Positions 393 through 64,000 of a stretch of 64,000 nt of DNA are shown piece after piece. Under the pieces are notes generated by a model. The model worked only from the letters and a program-made list of their open reading frames with translations, was not told the origin of the DNA and did no database searches. This stretch comes from Schmidtea polychroa (lineage: Eukaryota). Within the stretch, counting starts at the first letter, position 1. Every line of letters begins with the position of its first letter. A program made the translations under genes and the position numbers. Location: contig CM097885.1 in NCBI GenBank assembly GCA_044892525.1, forward strand, positions 6,760,001 to 6,824,000, in the 5' to 3' direction.

Positions 393-1129
393 TTTGATCA
401 TCATTACAACAAATATTCATTGTTGGGGGATAATAAATTTATTTCGTATTTTATAATAAATTTATTGGTTTAATTATATACTATTTATATTTTATTTTAA
501 TTACCCAAAAAATATATTTCCTATTTTTTAAATTCTGTAATTTAATTATATTTTTATTTTTTTAATAAAATAAGACGTTTTTTATATTTTAAATATTTTT
601 TTAATTTTAAATTTTAAATCTAATTAAATATTAATTTAAGTATTAATTTAGTTGAATGTTGATGGAAGGTTTAAGTCTTTTGATATAAAGTGTATTATCG
701 GCTAATCTTTGCAATGAGTTTCTGAACGCATCCTGTAACATTTTGCATTTTGTTTCGTGTAAGAGTGGTGCTGATTTGTGCACTTTTTCCAGTGTTCATG
801 ATAGTTGCTGGTTTTGCTGTTGACGTGTTTGTTGAGTCTTGTTCTAAGTGTTTCGCCTATGTACGATGCGTTACATTTTGTGCAAGTAATTTGGTAAACG
901 ATGTTCTTTGAGAAGCAGAAACATTTGGTGGAGGATTGGCATATACCAACGGTGGGCAAATGCGGCTCTTCGTTGAGTAAACTGCGGCTCATTGATAATT
1001 GAATTTTTGATAATTGAATTTGAAAATTGAATTCGATTTTTTTATTTTGAAATTTTTTCAACTGAATTTTTAAAAAAAAATTTTTTGTTGCAATTGTATT
1101 TTCATAAATGTTAAAAATTAACGAAACAT

Positions 1130-3090: not shown

Positions 3091-3241
3091 TGTAAGGAGT
3101 TAGTAAACCTCTATATAAAATTCTTATGGTTAAATGGTAGAAGTGAGATCAATTAGTAGAAATAATTATTTCTGTTAAATTGATCTCACTCCTACCATTT
3201 AACCATAAGAATTTTATATAGAGGTTTACTAACTCCTTACA
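3091..3241. repeat. ~151-bp near-perfect palindrome with TGT...ACA ends
   Basis: tgtaaggagttagtaaacctctatataaaattcttatggttaaatggtag... is mirrored by ...ctaccatttaaccataagaattttatatagaggtttactaactccttaca, centred on aataattatt. Confidence 0.95.
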
Positions 3242-5295: not shown

Positions 5296-12910
<7,615 letters not shown>

Positions 12911-16744: not shown

Positions 16745-56347
<39,603 letters not shown>

Positions 56348-56393
56348 GTTGGAATTAATTTTATTAAAATTACTAAAAATAAAATTCTTAAAT

Positions 56394-56456
<63 letters not shown>

Positions 56457-56613
56457 TTAAATTAAATAATTAATAAAAATTTTTTAAATTATTGAATTAA
56501 ATTTTAAATGTTAAAATTTTCAAAAAATAATATATTTTTTTATAAAATGAAAAAAAATTTTTATATATAATTAATAAATTTGTTTAAAATCCTTAATTTA
56601 CATAGTTATTATA

Positions 56614-56657
56614 TTCCACCTGATGATGACAGGAAAACTGTCGAAATTAATCGTGAA
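56614..56657 (+). ncRNA. Minimal type I hammerhead ribozyme, intact core
   Basis: TTCCAC-CTGATGA-T-GACAG GAAAA CTGTC-GAAA-TTAA-TC-GTGAA; stem I CAC/GTG, 5-bp stem II, palindromic ATTAAT stem III, AUC cleavage triplet. Confidence 0.85.
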
Positions 56658-57473
56658 AAGAATGTTTGATTGGCGTTATCTTATAATTAAATCATTGCCA
56701 TGTATGTTTAACTATTTATTTTATTTATTATTTATTATTATTTTATATTATTACTTATATTTATTATTAGTATTATTATTATTAGTTTTGTTATTATTTT
56801 ATTTATTATATATTATTATTATTTTTTATTATTGTTATTTATTATTTATTATTATTTCTTCTTATTATTATTTTTGTTATTATTTCATTTATTATATATT
56901 ATTATTATTATTATTGTTATTAATATTAAATAATATTATTTTATTTATTATATATTATTATTATTATTATTATTATTTATTAATATTTATTATTCTTATT
57001 AATAATTATTATTTTATTATTTATAATTATTGTAAGGTGTTTCAGCTGAAAATTAAATATTCTAAATATTTTGTTGAAATGTTTAAAATTAATGTAAATA
57101 GTAAATAATTAAATTGTTAAAATCATAAAATTTTAATATTAAGTAATTGTAAAATAGGAAAATGTTATATCTTTGACTTTAAGTTTATTAAATGAAAGCA
57201 ATTTAGTAGATGTTCTTGTAAGATCTAACATTACGACTACGTCTATATAGAATTTTCATAAAGAAATGAGTCCAAGGTGATATTCAATGAGGTGATGATG
57301 TAGAGAATATCGATAATTTGAAACATAATATTAATTCGTGCCTGGGTCCTCTGACAAATACGTCCGATAATTACAATTTTGTAAATATATTCGACGAACA
57401 ACGGAAATATATCACTATACAAACATTTTCTCATTACAGAAATTATTTAGATAATGATATGAATTTTGTATAT

Positions 57474-60400
57474 TAGGGTGGGTCGAATGTTAATAAATTT
57501 TGAGTTCAAGAAAGGAAACGTGGTTAAAAAGTTGTATTTTGGTATAGAAAAATCGAATCAAACCATTTTACTTAGATTTATGGACATTTACTGCTCCCAA
57601 CTTTTCTCCGAAAATGCAGTTCAACATAAGTGTGAAAACAATGTAATTTGGCTAGTGTCGGAATGTGTTTTGCGCCTTTGTCCATATTTAGATGTAGCTT
57701 TCTTAAGAGCTTATAAGTATATTATTTACTCTCTTGGGCTGAGATAGTATATTCTGTGTCCTCATCCCGCATTGAAATATATCCTGACAACGTCAGTGAT
57801 TAGGAAGGGCCAAATTTGAATTATCCTTTTCAAAGACAAAAATCAACTTTCGAAATTATTTTTATTAAAAACATCCAGCCAAAAGTTTAGAAATGTATTA
57901 GCGAGGGCATAAAAAGTAGTCACATGAAATCAGCTTTGCTTTGCACCTTGGGCAATTCCTTCCTTGATTTTTTACACAGTAGTACCATACCATGTCTGGA
58001 CTTGTGACCAAACACTTTGCAACTGGCAGAAGAAACATCTTTGATGGCTCTTTCAACGGCTTGAGAATGACAGGGAAATTGTTCTAATGTAATTTTCTTA
58101 TTCATCTTCAATTCATGATCCAATATATGAGATAAAAGAGGGGGAGGCGTCAAATTACATTTTGTCCAGTCAATCATGTCAACATATGATGTAGCAGACG
58201 ACTGAAGAAAGACAGTATTCTTGTCCATAGTGCGAATCACTTCGGAAGGGAGAAAATTTTGTCTTGCAGTTATGATTTTTTCTGTTGCAAACTTTCTGAT
58301 TTCTTCATCATCACCAACAGCAGCTAGGAGTATATTTTCTGGATGTGAGAAGTAATTGTTGTTCTGAATGACAGGAAAGATGATTTCTTGGTCTGATGGA
58401 TCCAAATCCTGCAGAAGTTGGAGCATATAAAAAATATTTCTTGCACCATCTTGGCATGACGAGTGAGTCTTTATATAAAACCATGACGGTCCATAGAAAT
58501 TGACAATAAATTTCACTATTCGCATGAGAGGTTCAGATGGAGCAGTTTCGGACATATATAGTCGCAGAATTCTATTAGCTTTCGTTAGCCAGCGACTGTG
58601 ATTCAAATTTCCTGGTTGTGCCATTTGTAGAAAAGGGACATCCTTGTTGTTGTGGTACCCTTTCTGGACTACCAAGCATACTCTGAGGAAATACAATTGA
58701 TCAGTGTTCAATTCTTTCTTGACATTTTCACTAATATCTACGACCTTTCCAGGAAGGGACATAAAGGCTACTACGGGCTTGTCTTTTGGATCAAAATCAA
58801 GAACGCTTTCTATTTCACCACATGACGTTTTTGGACCTTTTGTTTCTCCACCATCGACGACTGAAAAATACTTCCTGAATGGCAATTCATTTGCATGCAA
58901 CAAGCATATCAGCCATTGTAGAGGTCGCCCTAGGCTTTTTTCGAGTCTTCTGATTATTCCATTATTTTTTCCGGTGTTTGTATTGGTTCCATCGCACACA
59001 ATTGCTTGAAGGGTCAGTGAGGACTGCGTCCTAACGATGATTGACATGATTTCTTTGCCAATATCCACAGCTTTACTACTTTGAGGTACAACATGATCGA
59101 TATATGTATCCCCTGGAAAGGCGACAATCACATAATGCTCCTCTTTTAGGATCCTTCTATGAAGTAAGGTGGAATCTTGTTTCCCGTCGAAACCGAGGCA
59201 AATCAAGTTTTTCGCTTCTGCTGAATGCTGTTCAATTTCTCTCTCCCTCCAGTACTTTCTCTGACGCCGTAATTTTGCGGGATCGATGATTGTTTGAGAG
59301 GATAACAGTTCCATATCTTTCAGAAAAGCGTTTACTAGCAAACACGTGTCTCTGTTGCTCACACCACATCTGTCAACAGCTTTACTTAATCCAGGATAAT
59401 GTCTTCTATTTTGAAATTCATCACATTCTTCTACGCTTGACTCTGAGCTTTCTGTTGAATTGTCTAACTTATCTTTACTTTCATCACTAGCGGCTTCACT
59501 CTCCGTGTCACTTCTTGAGGTCGGATGTAGATCGTTAACTTCAGTGTCCATTATTTCATTTTTCATTTGTTTTCCTTTTCCTGTAGGGCTGCTTTTCGTT
59601 TGTTTTCTCTTCAATTTTGAGGTTTCCTGTCTGTCCGTATTTCCGATTTTCATGTTTCTGGTAGTTTGTTGGTCAATCCAGAACTCCCACTCTAAGGTAG
59701 GAATTTTCAAGGCCAATCGGCATGTACACTGACTTCTTCCACGAGCACCATCATTAAAACATTTGCAGCAACATATGTCAAACAATTTGGAAAACGAGCT
59801 TAACTTATCTTGAAATTTGGCAGATGACCTCTTGCATTCTGGATACTTCTCTAATTCACGCACTTTTGATATTAGTCGCTTGACACGAACCACAATACTA
59901 CTGAACTCAACAGTTGGGATACTTGCCTTCATATAAATTTCCTTCACCTTATTTGCGAGAAGAGTTGCTTGTTCGTTAAAGCCAGTATGAAATTGCGTAC
60001 ATTTCTCATTGTAACAGTAATCACGAAACACATCTTCACAAGTAGGTAATTGGTTTCTGGGTAGTTCACAAGTTTGACCAAACAGACAATGACGTGATTT
60101 ACTTCTTGTTTTGCGAAATTGCTTATTTCTCTGTCCCTTCATAACTGCTCTTCTGTACTCAGCTCTGGCAAAATAAAAGTGAATCATCAAGTTAACTTTT
60201 TTAATTAGGTCCAGCAAACTCTTGATATCCAATCGAAACAAATTAAATTATCTGAGTTTAGACTGACTAGTAGTATCCATGTGGATTATGTGTTGACTGT
60301 AGTGTGTGTGTGTTAGTATTGTTCAGAAGAAATTGTCTTTGTGAGTGCTTGTGTGAAGGTGCTTCCGTGAATTAACCTCTCTATACATGCACGCGTTAGC

Positions 60401-60643
60401 TTGGACTTGTGAATAGAGCATGTCAAAAATGGTCTTTCTGCAAGCGTGTGACTGCTTGCAGGATGAATTTACAATGGCACGTGTGCGAGCATTTTTACTG
60501 GGATAGTACTAATACATACAAACAAAAGTTGGGACCTGTAAACCCTTTTAAACAGCAGTCTTTTGCAGGGATATTTCATTTTCTAGCATAAGCACAACTT
60601 TTTAGGCATGTTTGGAGGGAAAAAAAATTTTCGACCCACCCTA
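57474..60643 (-). mobile_element. Apparently intact autonomous hAT-superfamily (hATm-type) transposon, 3170 bp
   Basis: Perfect 14-bp TIR TAGGGTGGGTCGAA / TTCGACCCACCCTA; perfect 8-bp TSD TTGTATAT (57466-57473, 60644-60651); single uninterrupted ORF. Confidence 0.92.
57920..60241 (-). CDS. DDE transposase, hATm-like (773 aa from the TTG; true ATG probably slightly downstream)
   Basis: LGFDGKQD (D1), VCDGTNTNTG (D2), ICLLHANEL (CxxH), SRWLT, PCHSQAVER (E); Cys-rich N-terminus. Subgroup name is from recall of similar proteins. Confidence 0.85.
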   Translation of the reverse strand: MFRLDIKSLLDLIKKVNLMIHFYFARAEYRRAVMKGQRNKQFRKTRSKSRHCLFGQTCELPRNQLPTCEDVFRDYCYNEKCTQFHTGFNEQATLLANKVKEIYMKASIPTVEFSSIVVRVKRLISKVRELEKYPECKRSSAKFQDKLSSFSKLFDICCCKCFNDGARGRSQCTCRLALKIPTLEWEFWIDQQTTRNMKIGNTDRQETSKLKRKQTKSSPTGKGKQMKNEIMDTEVNDLHPTSRSDTESEAASDESKDKLDNSTESSESSVEECDEFQNRRHYPGLSKAVDRCGVSNRDTCLLVNAFLKDMELLSSQTIIDPAKLRRQRKYWREREIEQHSAEAKNLICLGFDGKQDSTLLHRRILKEEHYVIVAFPGDTYIDHVVPQSSKAVDIGKEIMSIIVRTQSSLTLQAIVCDGTNTNTGKNNGIIRRLEKSLGRPLQWLICLLHANELPFRKYFSVVDGGETKGPKTSCGEIESVLDFDPKDKPVVAFMSLPGKVVDISENVKKELNTDQLYFLRVCLVVQKGYHNNKDVPFLQMAQPGNLNHSRWLTKANRILRLYMSETAPSEPLMRIVKFIVNFYGPSWFYIKTHSSCQDGARNIFYMLQLLQDLDPSDQEIIFPVIQNNNYFSHPENILLAAVGDDEEIRKFATEKIITARQNFLPSEVIRTMDKNTVFLQSSATSYVDMIDWTKCNLTPPPLLSHILDHELKMNKKITLEQFPCHSQAVERAIKDVSSASCKVFGHKSRHGMVLLCKKSRKELPKVQSKADFM

Positions 60644-61469
60644 TTGTATATTCCAATTTACTAATTGAACAAAAATAATATCAGCCAGATTTTCAATATT
60701 ATTTGAATTATATATAAAACCAAGTATCCTTCGCCAGATACAATCGGTTGATGGGATCCTTAACACTAAACGTACCATGAACAGTTGAAAACTTTTGAAT
60801 AGAAAATTAGCATACAATATTTTCGCTTTTTACACTTGACCTCATTACTTTGCTATTAGATATATACAATTAATTTTTATTTTATTTTGTTAATCATACC
60901 ATATTTACCACGACAAATCATTTAATCGAGATAAATATTTACTTCCTTATCAGGTGTTTGGATATGGAAATGCACATTCTACGTATTGTATCAGTTTGTG
61001 GCACATTTCTGAAAACCTGTTGCGATTTAAGCTCAATAAAAAATAGTTGTGAATTGAAATTTCAAGTTGGAAGTATTGTTTAAATGGAAAGAAAAGTCAA
61101 AAAACTAAACATTCTTGGTAGCTAGTTTTCTATTTTGTTTTGTTTTGTTTATTTTGATTATTTAACCACATCGACATCAATTTGGAGACCCCAGTATTTT
61201 CACACGGCCTTATTACGAATAAAAGTTGCAAGTCAAGTGAAGGTGATGTACATTGAATCGAATCCACGGCAAGGAAGAGCCAATTCACAGGCAATGTAGT
61301 TTCTCAAAGGGCTCTTCATTAAATTTGCACAATATTAGCAGGAATTGAATTTTTAGTAAATATTTCAATTAAAATATTTGTTATGTTTCAATGGGTGCCT
61401 TACAGCTAACTAGTTAAAGAAGATTTGAATTACGATTCACAATACTTTTCAAAGAAATTTAGAAGGCTT

Positions 61470-62140
61470 ATCAGGGAGGTGCCAGAGTATTTGGCACCTT
61501 AAGCGAACCTGTTGCACTGTATCTCCCGCACTCACGGTCACTAATTATTTAATTAATATTAACGTTCACAAAGAAATGCAGAATGATATGCTGTCGATTT
61601 TATACCATTCAGATTTTGTTTCTTGGAGCGTACCTTGCATTTCATTCTGTGATTCAAACTCTTATGATACTGTCATCTCCTCGTATTTATCCGCTTCCTT
61701 GTCCGCTTTCTTATGAGGTGTGCATAGATAGTTTAACCACGAGTCTCCTTGTTCTGATATATATTTTTCATTTTCAGTCCGTAGTTTACAACACTGTGCA
61801 CCAGACAATCGTTTTCTCTCTGCCATTGGGGATTGAAATAACAACGGAAATTTTTAAATATAACGTTCTACAAAAGTAAAACTAAGTATCTTAGTTAAAG
61901 TAATTAAGTAGCCAATCGACAAGAATCAAATTTTAATTTTTGCTGGCTTTATGATGATCAGGATCATTATCATGGATGTCATACTGCGTGATTTCATTTC
62001 CGTAAGTTGGGTCTTTCAATAATTGAATTAAATTTTGCAAGGAAGTTCCACTGTTTTTCCGCAATTTCTTCTTTTTCTCCTTTAATTTATCAGAACTACG
62101 CCTATACTTTATTCCTGCATCTTTGTCTCTACTAGTCATG
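61470..62140 (-). mobile_element. hAT/Tip100-type N-terminal fragments
   Basis: MAERKRLSGAQCCKLR basic leader resembling the ORF at 63536; CAGGG.GG TIR-like sequence at ~61472. Confidence 0.4.
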
Positions 62141-63056
62141 TTGCGAAATTATCTAAAAGTAATATTATAAAAAACAAACAAAAAAAAGTTAACTATTTAA
62201 AAAAGCTATTTAAAAAAGCAAGTTTCAACACAAAATTTGCTGTCAATTTTATCTTAGTAAGTAGTTAATGATAATAGATATATGATTAAATTTTTCTGGT
62301 TGGATATCAAACTTGGTGTATATTATTTAATAAGGAAATTAAATCGGCAGTTCAATCTGGTTTCGGTTTTATCCCTTCAACGAGATTTCAACAAAAATTT
62401 AATTTCAACTATTTTTAAAATTCCCATTTCGTTTCCACACGTGTGTAACAGCTGCAATTGCAATTGCAATTTTGTAACACTTAAAATTCACTATAAAGTT
62501 CACAAAATTCACTTAAATTATTTTAGGATCTAGAAAGTCATAAAAAACAATTTATTAAAATATTTAATTACTTATTTTTGAATTTTGGTTAATTTTGTAC
62601 ACTTGTTGCAGACATAAAATTTCTAAATTTTTCTAAAATTGTTCTGTGCCTTAAGAATTATATGGTTTCAAGATCTTTGAATATGATTTTAAAATCTTAT
62701 AAGATTCAGAGAATTTACTGTCTTTTACTTGCCTTAATGATTAGTCATTTATCTTGAAATTCTACAATAATTGTGAGGTTCTGTAAGCCTGTAATGCCTT
62801 TATATAGCATTTCTCAAGGCTTCATTCTTACTTTTGTTTGAATAAGTAATTAAGTAAAATGTTCGTCATTTCTTTTGCAAAATTTAACAAAGAAATAATT
62901 ATTAATAACTTTCATTCTTATAATATTTATATATATTAATTGAATAATATATCATAATCATGATTTGTTTACCTAATTATTATACGTAATCAGTTTGCAT
63001 AAAGTTTTTTAATTTGGTAGATTTATTTTAATCAAAAACACCATTTTTATTTCAAT

Positions 63057-64000
63057 CAGGGCTGGCCTTAGGCACAAGCAAAGCAGGCAGTTGCCTAGGG
63101 CGCCAAAATCTGGAACGCATTTTTGTGTTTTTCACTTTCTAAACCTTTTTTTCATTTAAGTCGTTGCATTTTCATTAATTTCGTATTAAAAACTGTTGCT
63201 TATAACTTATAATATTTCTAACAGGTCAATTTTACCTCAATCATGTGTTTATAATTAGATTCACTTTTCGTCTTTTTAATAGATAAAATGATTATCATTC
63301 AGAACAAAATAATATTATCATAATTAGTTATATCGACTAAATTTTGTTTCAAATTTAGTTATTTATAATTTATATTGATGACTAATGAGCGTTATTATTA
63401 AAATGATTTTGCAACAAAACGCAGACAGTATTGAAATAAGTTAACTATCCTTTAAAATCTGTAGTACTTTTAAATTTTAATCAGTTTCTTAGTTATATCT
63501 AATTGCTAAATATTTAAAAATAATCTCCAAACCCTATGAAACGTCAGAAGAACTCGGGTGCTCAATCTCGTCAGAAAAAGCGACAAGCAAAACTTAGTAT
63601 GAAAAAGCAAACAGGATGGCTTTCCAGATATTTTGAGAAAATCAATACTACTCCATCTGTTAATATCATTTCCCAGTCTGGCTAGTCATCAGCTAGCAAT
63701 TCAGAAACTACAACATTTAATGTTAATAATGAAGATGTTGCTCAAAATGAAACGGAAGTAGACCTTACTGTCACTGAAGATGAACTTATAAGTTCATTTG
63801 CCTCTGATTCCGATTTAAATGCATCTCTAAGTACAGAAAACAATAAAGAAGCAGCCGTGGAAGAAAATCGATTTGATTTTGACGATCCAGCCAATTGGCC
63901 AAATATAATAGATGATGCCACTCGAGTAGCATTTGTAAAGAAAGGCCCAGTAAGAATGACAGAGTATGATTTTCCTAAAAATGAAGCTCAGAACAATCGT
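63057..64000 (+). mobile_element. hAT/Tip100 (ZMYM1-like) element, 5' part, runs off the window
   Basis: Terminus CAGGGCTGGCCTTAGG. Frame from ATG 63536: MKRQKNSGAQSRQKK...DDPANWP...KGP...FPKN, with one in-frame TAG at 63683. Confidence 0.75.

Follow-up and report, generated by a model that had tools for sequence, protein, structure and literature searches.

A minimal type I hammerhead in a GRK2 intron of Schmidtea polychroa derives from a truncated Penelope-like element and is probably close to inert for its host gene

A complete minimal type I hammerhead motif can be read from the sense strand of a long GRK2 intron of Schmidtea polychroa, which raises the question of where such a ribozyme came from and whether it affects the gene that now carries it. 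An earlier note on this DNA had described a sense-strand hammerhead with every core nucleotide, a perfect stem II and a palindromic stem III about 270 nt into the intron, and all of this is borne out: the motif is present, the host gene is GRK2/3, and C3 is intron nucleotide 273. The window referred to here is the whole stretch of 64,000 nucleotides that was analysed (contig CM097885.1), and positions past its end are given as extended positions. The core spans 56617-56655, with a predicted cut at 56652/56653, and the parts of the motif, read from the sequence unless stated otherwise, are the following.

56611..56665, plus strand: whole minimal type I hammerhead including distal stem I (sequence, folding)
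56611-16 / 56660-65, plus strand: distal stem I, 6 further pairs beyond a 4-nt bulge (sequence, folding)
56617-19 / 56653-55, plus strand: stem I, CAC / GTG
56620-26, plus strand: hammerhead core CTGATGA
56627, plus strand: extra T (U in RNA) between A9 and G10.1, unmentioned in the earlier note
56628-32 / 56638-42, plus strand: stem II, GACAG / CTGTC, loop GAAAA, 5/5 pairs
56643-45, plus strand: GAA
56646-51, plus strand: stem III strand AUUAAU, with A15.1 at 56646, the palindrome TTAA at 56647-50 and T16.1 at 56651
56652, plus strand: C17, with the predicted cut at 56652/56653

The conserved positions C3-U-G-A-N-G-A9, G12-A-A14, A15.1-U16.1 and H17 are all present between 56620 and 56652, and helix II combines G10.1-C11.1 with the extra nucleotide between 9 and 10.1, its five pairs forming at a probability of about 1.0. 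A loose hammerhead pattern matched three times in the window against 0.37 expected, a number reached by 0 of 100 shuffles, and stem II is present in two of the three matches (49235 and 56620). The third, at 56134-56164 on the minus strand within an exon, has no stem II and was set aside, as was another minus-strand match at 63692. A covariance-type scan, which the earlier note had proposed, did not recover the motif: Rfam gave no hammerhead family in the window at E<=1, only five weak miRNA matches, a blank that we attribute to the minimal form and do not take as a sign of an absent hammerhead.

Folding gives a divided picture of the three stems. In the motif alone, RNAfold assigns pairing probabilities of 0.84 to stem I and 1.0 to stem II, and in 260-550 nt of context these are 0.6 and 1.0. 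The pairing probability of stem III in the monomer is 0.0, in agreement with the earlier expectation that this palindromic stem would need a dimer; in the minimum free energy structure the core and the stem III strand are paired with each other, and the active fold of the monomer lies 8.7 kcal/mol higher in a calculation that ignores hammerhead tertiary contacts. The computed stem III duplex of a homodimer, made of 6 A-U pairs, reaches −0.2 kcal/mol. A downstream TGGC...GCC hairpin, also reported before, is present as a weak TGGC...GCCA fold. Judged by sequence, the ribozyme is the minimal type I hammerhead of EN+ PLE pLTRs, showing every sequence feature of the class that could be checked.

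The assignment to a Penelope-like element (PLE) pLTR had been suggested in the earlier note, and it stands because the motif is collinear with PLE copies that bear an ORF. The same comparison changes the reading of its surroundings, where the following features can be placed.

56457..56720, plus strand: 5'-truncated PLE of which the final ~264 nt remain, with UTR/pLTR, hammerhead, start of the ORF and tail; L005/L071 match it at 95.4% over 263-264 nt, and it ends 3' at +101 from C3
56457..56625, plus strand: AT-rich PLE UTR (pLTR body), from the match to longer copies; 5' end of the copy at −160 to −163
56626..56720, plus strand: start of the PLE ORF (~32 codons), its ATG made of A9, the extra U and G10.1
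56688..56720, plus strand: PLE tail, a ~32-nt extension between the two 3'-end classes of the family (3' ends of 30 copies)
56395..56456, plus strand: (AAT)n microsatellite bordering the insertion on its 5' side (sequence; TRF 56395-56480)
56716..57031, plus strand: degenerate (TTA)n tract, 3' flank (TRF)

The 95.4% identity to L005/L071 spans 56457-56720 and stops there. Within it, 56626-56712 corresponds to codons 1-29 of the PLE ORF at 96.6% (compared with L073), so that the very interval described in the earlier note as having no PLE coding sequence nearby includes the start of that ORF (56626-56720), with further coding remnants at 48351-48960 (plus strand) and 51805-51981 (minus strand). 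The flank was likewise not merely AT-rich low-complexity DNA: 56457-56619 is PLE UTR (95.4% over 263 nt to L005), since it is collinear with ORF-bearing copies. In L003, L005, L012, L016, L019 and L024 the ORF stop lies ~195 nt upstream of the core, and the window copy begins ~35 nt past the position of the GIY-YIG stop codon of the longer copies. The predicted cut falls 26 nt past the A of the ORF's ATG. Identity of 95% to sibling copies points to a recent insertion, and we conclude that the motif is almost certainly the hammerhead of a young, 5'-truncated, 264-nt copy of a Penelope-like retrotransposon.

The family to which it belongs is large. In a search of 781 Mb of chromosome-scale contigs, the genome-wide copy search that had been called for, the exact 31-nt core was found 1,554 times (781 + 773), against 0 for a reversed-sequence control. 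A search of the same genome with 56590-56720 returned 1,121 candidates, and the 40 full-length matches listed among them are 97-100% identical over 129-131 nt. Directly upstream of the core and on the same strand, L003, L005, L017 and L073 carry frames for reverse transcriptase (RT; PF00078, E 1e-8) and GIY-YIG (PF01541, E 3e-4 to 2e-3, just under the Pfam gathering cut-off). A single ORF joining RT to a C-terminal GIY-YIG domain is seen at family level in L005/L071 and in L073, both with breaks; the window copy retains only its first ~32 codons. L073 is a near-complete pLTR-ORF-pLTR element with cores at 1533 and 4263, 2,730 nt apart, the second with one change; its ribozyme-internal ATG opens a 276-aa frame up to a frameshift, followed by the RT and GIY-YIG frames. 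Membership of the Penelope/Poseidon clade is likely; a CxxC-type motif was not seen by eye in the RT-EN linker of L005. L071 (2583-8924) is a long PLE copy, with a sense ribozyme and an inverted downstream copy, flanked on both sides by exons of a further protein kinase gene that looks PKA-like by eye; a sense copy in an intron is therefore not peculiar to GRK2.

The ends of the family were compared in an ordered set, which takes in the GRK2 locus and its duplicate, a group of four near-identical neighbours and two inverted pairs that each enter twice, once from either side. The set holds 30 copies (L041-L070), the first with an exact core in chromosome order. Their 5' ends scatter from −9 to about −1500; truncation within the UTR, as in the window copy, is found in 14 of 30, an inverted ribozyme-bearing copy upstream in 12 and an AAT/ATT run at the 3' end in 11. 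The 3' ends fall at +62 to +79 in 15 copies and at +99 to +108 in 11, with three earlier and one running into the ORF. Stem III is palindromic in all 30, as TTAA in 14 and TATA in 16, even though the search pattern left these bases free, so it alternates between two palindromes yet remains self-complementary, a pattern that suggests that dimer pairing is under selection in the element and not in the host. Most copies have a mismatch in distal stem I (21/30 with C); it is fully paired in 2/30, the GRK2 locus and its duplicate, and in 6/30 of a best-match set. Four copies, L062-L065 (G000:C1:8.75-9.04 Mb), have identical flanks and ends, and three are spaced by ~19.7 kb, which indicates that one insertion was multiplied by local tandem duplication.

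Much of this resembles what has been described for metazoan PLEs. The minimal hammerheads reported in PMC4209133 share the type I form, the short proximal helix I, the extra nucleotide 9/10.1, G10.1-C11.1 and the palindromic helix III, and they too occur mostly as single motifs in truncated PLEs, as opposite-strand pairs 100-700 bp apart or as two motifs that flank an RT ORF at a distance of ~3 kb from each other. Helix II has 5 bp here and 7-8 bp in the S. mansoni families of that paper; helix III has retained a palindromic insert of 4 nt, which the Drosophila, rotifer and shrimp variants described there also show. The present family does not figure in the passages of PMC4209133 that were consulted, whose supplements may list it, and no paper titled on it was found among the literature on Schmidtea or planarian Penelope hammerheads, where it may still have been published. 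The layout is shared with PAc, a Poseidon PLE of Anolis carolinensis (PMC11167929; Frangieh et al., 2024): the pLTR-ORF-pLTR arrangement of L073 and the start of the ORF inside the ribozyme are as described for PAc, and the PAc cut also lies 26 bp past the start codon. Counted from the start of the ORF, the two 3'-end classes of the present family fall at ~60-70 and ~93-102 nt, as against 111-118 for the PAc RT start (PMC11167929). This PLE family thus offers a clean case in which the extra U of the hammerhead doubles as a base of the start codon, as the PAc layout implies. The 5' truncation, adjacent inverted copies and optional 30-40-nt tail that are given as PLE features in PMC8557442 are all seen here.

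These comparisons suggest how the insertion may have arisen. Target-primed reverse transcription into an AAT/ATT-rich spot of the GRK2 intron is the likely route; it would have begun at the longer internal start and halted after ~264 nt, short of the endonuclease stop codon. The flanking (AAT)n and degenerate (TTA)n tracts would fit the ATT preference of the PAc endonuclease, and the TGGC...GCCA hairpin, which holds the shorter 3'-end class, may, by analogy with PAc, be the structure at which reverse transcription starts. The ribozyme would serve the RNA of the PLE itself, requiring a stem III dimer and/or the PLE protein, and in GRK2 pre-mRNA its cleavage would be too slow to compete with splicing.

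The GRK2 copy is accompanied by other PLE pieces in and around the gene.

48335..49330, plus strand: older related PLE copy in an upstream GRK2 intron (tblastn 43-64% aa, E 4e-43; blastn 68-72%)
L031:3590-4008 (extended 67590-68008), plus strand: second sense PLE end in the same intron as the ribozyme, ~76% identical, with GIY-YIG C-terminal codons and a broken ribozyme
51805-51981, minus strand: PLE ORF / GIY-YIG remnant (sequence comparison)
780-905, minus strand: GIY-YIG remnant (sequence comparison)
10207-10266, plus strand: 60-nt piece of PLE ORF start/tail without a ribozyme core (sequence comparison)

The likeness that the earlier note had seen to a copy at 49231 is real, this region being 72% identical over 98 nt to a family copy. 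The copy has UTR and a hammerhead core at 49235 with an AUAUAU stem III, A17 and a U-A pair in stem II where the window copy has C-G, and directly upstream of it lies ~630 nt of ORF remnant (48351-48960, plus strand, E 4e-43), which includes the GIY-YIG end. The PLE end at extended 67590-68008 lies 150 nt before the next GRK2 exon, and its core at extended 67922 has a changed C3 and one stem II mismatch. A dimer in cis with either copy was considered and rejected, since their palindromes differ from that of the window copy (computed stem III duplex +2.2 kcal/mol with either) and the core at extended 67922 is broken.

What this means for GRK2 depends on the intron and on the RNA that crosses it.

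55961..56347, plus strand: GRK2/3 exon, end of the AGC C-tail and first part of the PH domain (PDB phmmer, RNA contigs)
56348..64000, on to extended 68159, plus strand: GRK2 intron of 11,812 nt (5' GT at 56348; RNA contigs)
60954..61043, plus strand: minor alternative exon start (one X4 contig of 906 nt; placed after AG 60952-53)
L031:4160-4276, starting at extended 68160 after AG, plus strand: next GRK2 exon (loose contig ends from 56347)
From L031:5916, plus strand: last GRK2 exon (RNA contigs)

The best PDB matches of the exon at 55961-56347 are GRK3 and GRK2 (phmmer, E 2e-25), and Pfam PH matches it weakly at model positions 3-36. By eye, the downstream exons keep the frame and supply the remaining PH region and the C-terminus; these short exons gave no Pfam PH match. 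Compared with mammalian chains, the exon at 55961-56347 has a Ser/Gly/Asn-rich insert of ~25 residues, encoded between 56100 and 56200, that separates the C-tail helix from the PH domain. The intron has its donor at 56347/56348 and its 3' splice site 11.5 kb past the predicted cut.

Contigs of runs X1, X3 and X4, from two studies (X1 and X3 being one sample and X4 the second study), join 56347 to extended 68160 and span the ribozyme in 3/3 RNA-type runs. None of these runs is recorded as RNA; we treat them as such because their contigs also skip the preceding 50-nt GT..AG intron. In the DNA control X15 nothing matched at the locus, a kind of blank that can be false. The contigs show that spliced mRNA exists and give no RNA ends, levels or share of transcripts lost; X4 depth is 295.5 upstream against 229.8 + 7.4 downstream, a gap that carries no weight either way, since contig depth cannot rank the parts of one gene. 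At 56124 all three runs have a G in place of the A of the two assembly copies, so the animals that gave the RNA may be another strain or haplotype without the young insertion. The locus is also duplicated 276 kb downstream (window 35937 to extended 95556 recurs at G000:C1:7072001-7132000, with 99.7-99.97% identity across at least 60 kb), either as a recent segmental duplication or as an assembly duplicate, and reads can therefore not be assigned to one copy. A minor X4 splice joins 56347 to 60954 at a depth of 7.4 against 229.8 for the main junction; it, too, spans the ribozyme, and thus needs uncut RNA or splicing across the cut. Read in frame, the exon at 60954 extends the first PH part by 30 codons before a stop, giving either a PH-truncated product or a decay target, through splicing and not through the ribozyme.

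We put the probability that the ribozyme insertion has a negligible effect on GRK2, and is close to inert there, at roughly 0.88. The 1,554 identical cores mean that nothing marks out the GRK2 copy, and slow intronic ribozymes have been reported to have no effect on splicing (Fong et al., 2009, as cited in PMC10919898). Single S. mansoni minimal hammerheads are reported not to cleave, and dimers and trimers to cleave at a low level (Cervera and De la Pena, 2014; PMC4209133), while the PAc hammerhead is described as inactive without the PLE protein, with no RNA-seq ends at its site (PMC11167929). Some observations count against full inertness: in context, pairing of stems I and II is predicted, and distal stem I is fully paired, unlike in most copies. 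Over the 11.5 kb to the 3' splice site even a slow ribozyme has time to cut, and the abstract of a preprint on retrozymes (10.64898/2026.07.22.740005) states that these are excluded from introns, a hint that intronic hammerheads can be costly. The predicted stems I and II and the long way to the 3' splice site would favour a copy of the same PLE origin that, helped by the PLE protein or by a dimer in trans, cleaves a measurable share of nascent GRK2 RNA as an unselected and mildly harmful drain on the mRNA. The core is intact and on the sense strand, the 1,554 identical cores are possible partners, and the PAc hammerhead is reported to be protein-assisted (PMC11167929); the trans duplex, however, amounts to just 6 A-U pairs, the published dimers cleave poorly and all three RNA runs contain spliced mRNA, so that we consider this outcome unlikely. 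If such conditional cleavage were true, the mRNA output of the host would become linked to the activity of the transposon. A wider form of the idea, in which PLE-derived minimal hammerheads in sense introns, the GRK2 copy included, are latent switches that are silent alone and cleave when PLE protein or a family transcript that matches them is present, is distinctly improbable; were it true, bursts of transposon expression would lower the output of many host genes at once.

The earlier note had gone further, proposing a solo pLTR or retrozyme that could cut GRK2 pre-mRNA after the first PH exon in competition with splicing, and its co-option would make the ribozyme a regulator of the G-beta-gamma-binding PH domain. 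Position lends this some appeal, as the ribozyme lies on the sense strand between two PH-coding exons and two more sense family ends (49235 and extended 67922) lie in the gene, and CPEB3 is a precedent for regulation by an intronic ribozyme (PMC10919898). The likeness to the CPEB3 HDV-like ribozyme is one of position only, a self-cleaving type of motif on the sense strand of a long intron: the CPEB3 ribozyme is described as conserved across mammals, active as a monomer and affecting splicing (PMC10919898), whereas the motif here belongs to a recent transposon end, present in many copies, and has no monomer fold. At 95% identity to others, the GRK2 copy is young, and it resembles its 1,553 siblings; the copy at extended 67922 has lost C3 and one stem II pair, and the sole PH-truncating RNA seen is the minor splice to 60954. 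Nor does the source fit a retrozyme. Non-LTR retrozymes (10.64898/2026.07.22.740005; PMC7229834) are likewise described as short units related to PLE pLTRs with a small type I hammerhead, but as tandem non-coding units, and here a single truncated end of an ORF-bearing PLE includes the first ORF codons. TRF and a pattern scan of the window found no head-to-tail tandem array at the locus, the nearest other intact core is 7.4 kb away, and the scattered 5' ends define no unit length; the retrozyme was rejected on these grounds. Cutting in competition with splicing finds no support in RNA spliced across the motif in 3/3 runs, in a stem III absent from the monomer or in the differing palindromes of the other GRK2 copies, and co-option is highly improbable. 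The probability that the motif is merely a chance match in AT-rich DNA is close to nil: the Rfam blank and the one loose-pattern match in three that lacks stem II would speak for it, but it is refuted by the number of exact copies (1,554 against 0 in the control) and the fixed position within the PLE, and stems II (C-G against U-A at 49235) and III show paired changes.

On the preferred reading of a nearly inert PLE insertion, the GRK2 copy is one of more than 1,500 transposon ends and matters little by itself, while the 1,554 copies together provide material for a direct test of the host cost of minimal hammerheads.

Two other features of the window may be recorded. An imperfect hairpin of ~89 nt at 3122-3210, with weak miRNA-family scores far below gathering thresholds, is probably a repeat-derived inverted repeat. 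The intron that carries the ribozyme also holds, at 57469-60648, an apparent DNA transposon with nested terminal inverted repeats; its unbroken 775-aa frame on the minus strand (57923-60247) has no Pfam match and lies close to eukaryotic Atlas clusters (score 0.98).
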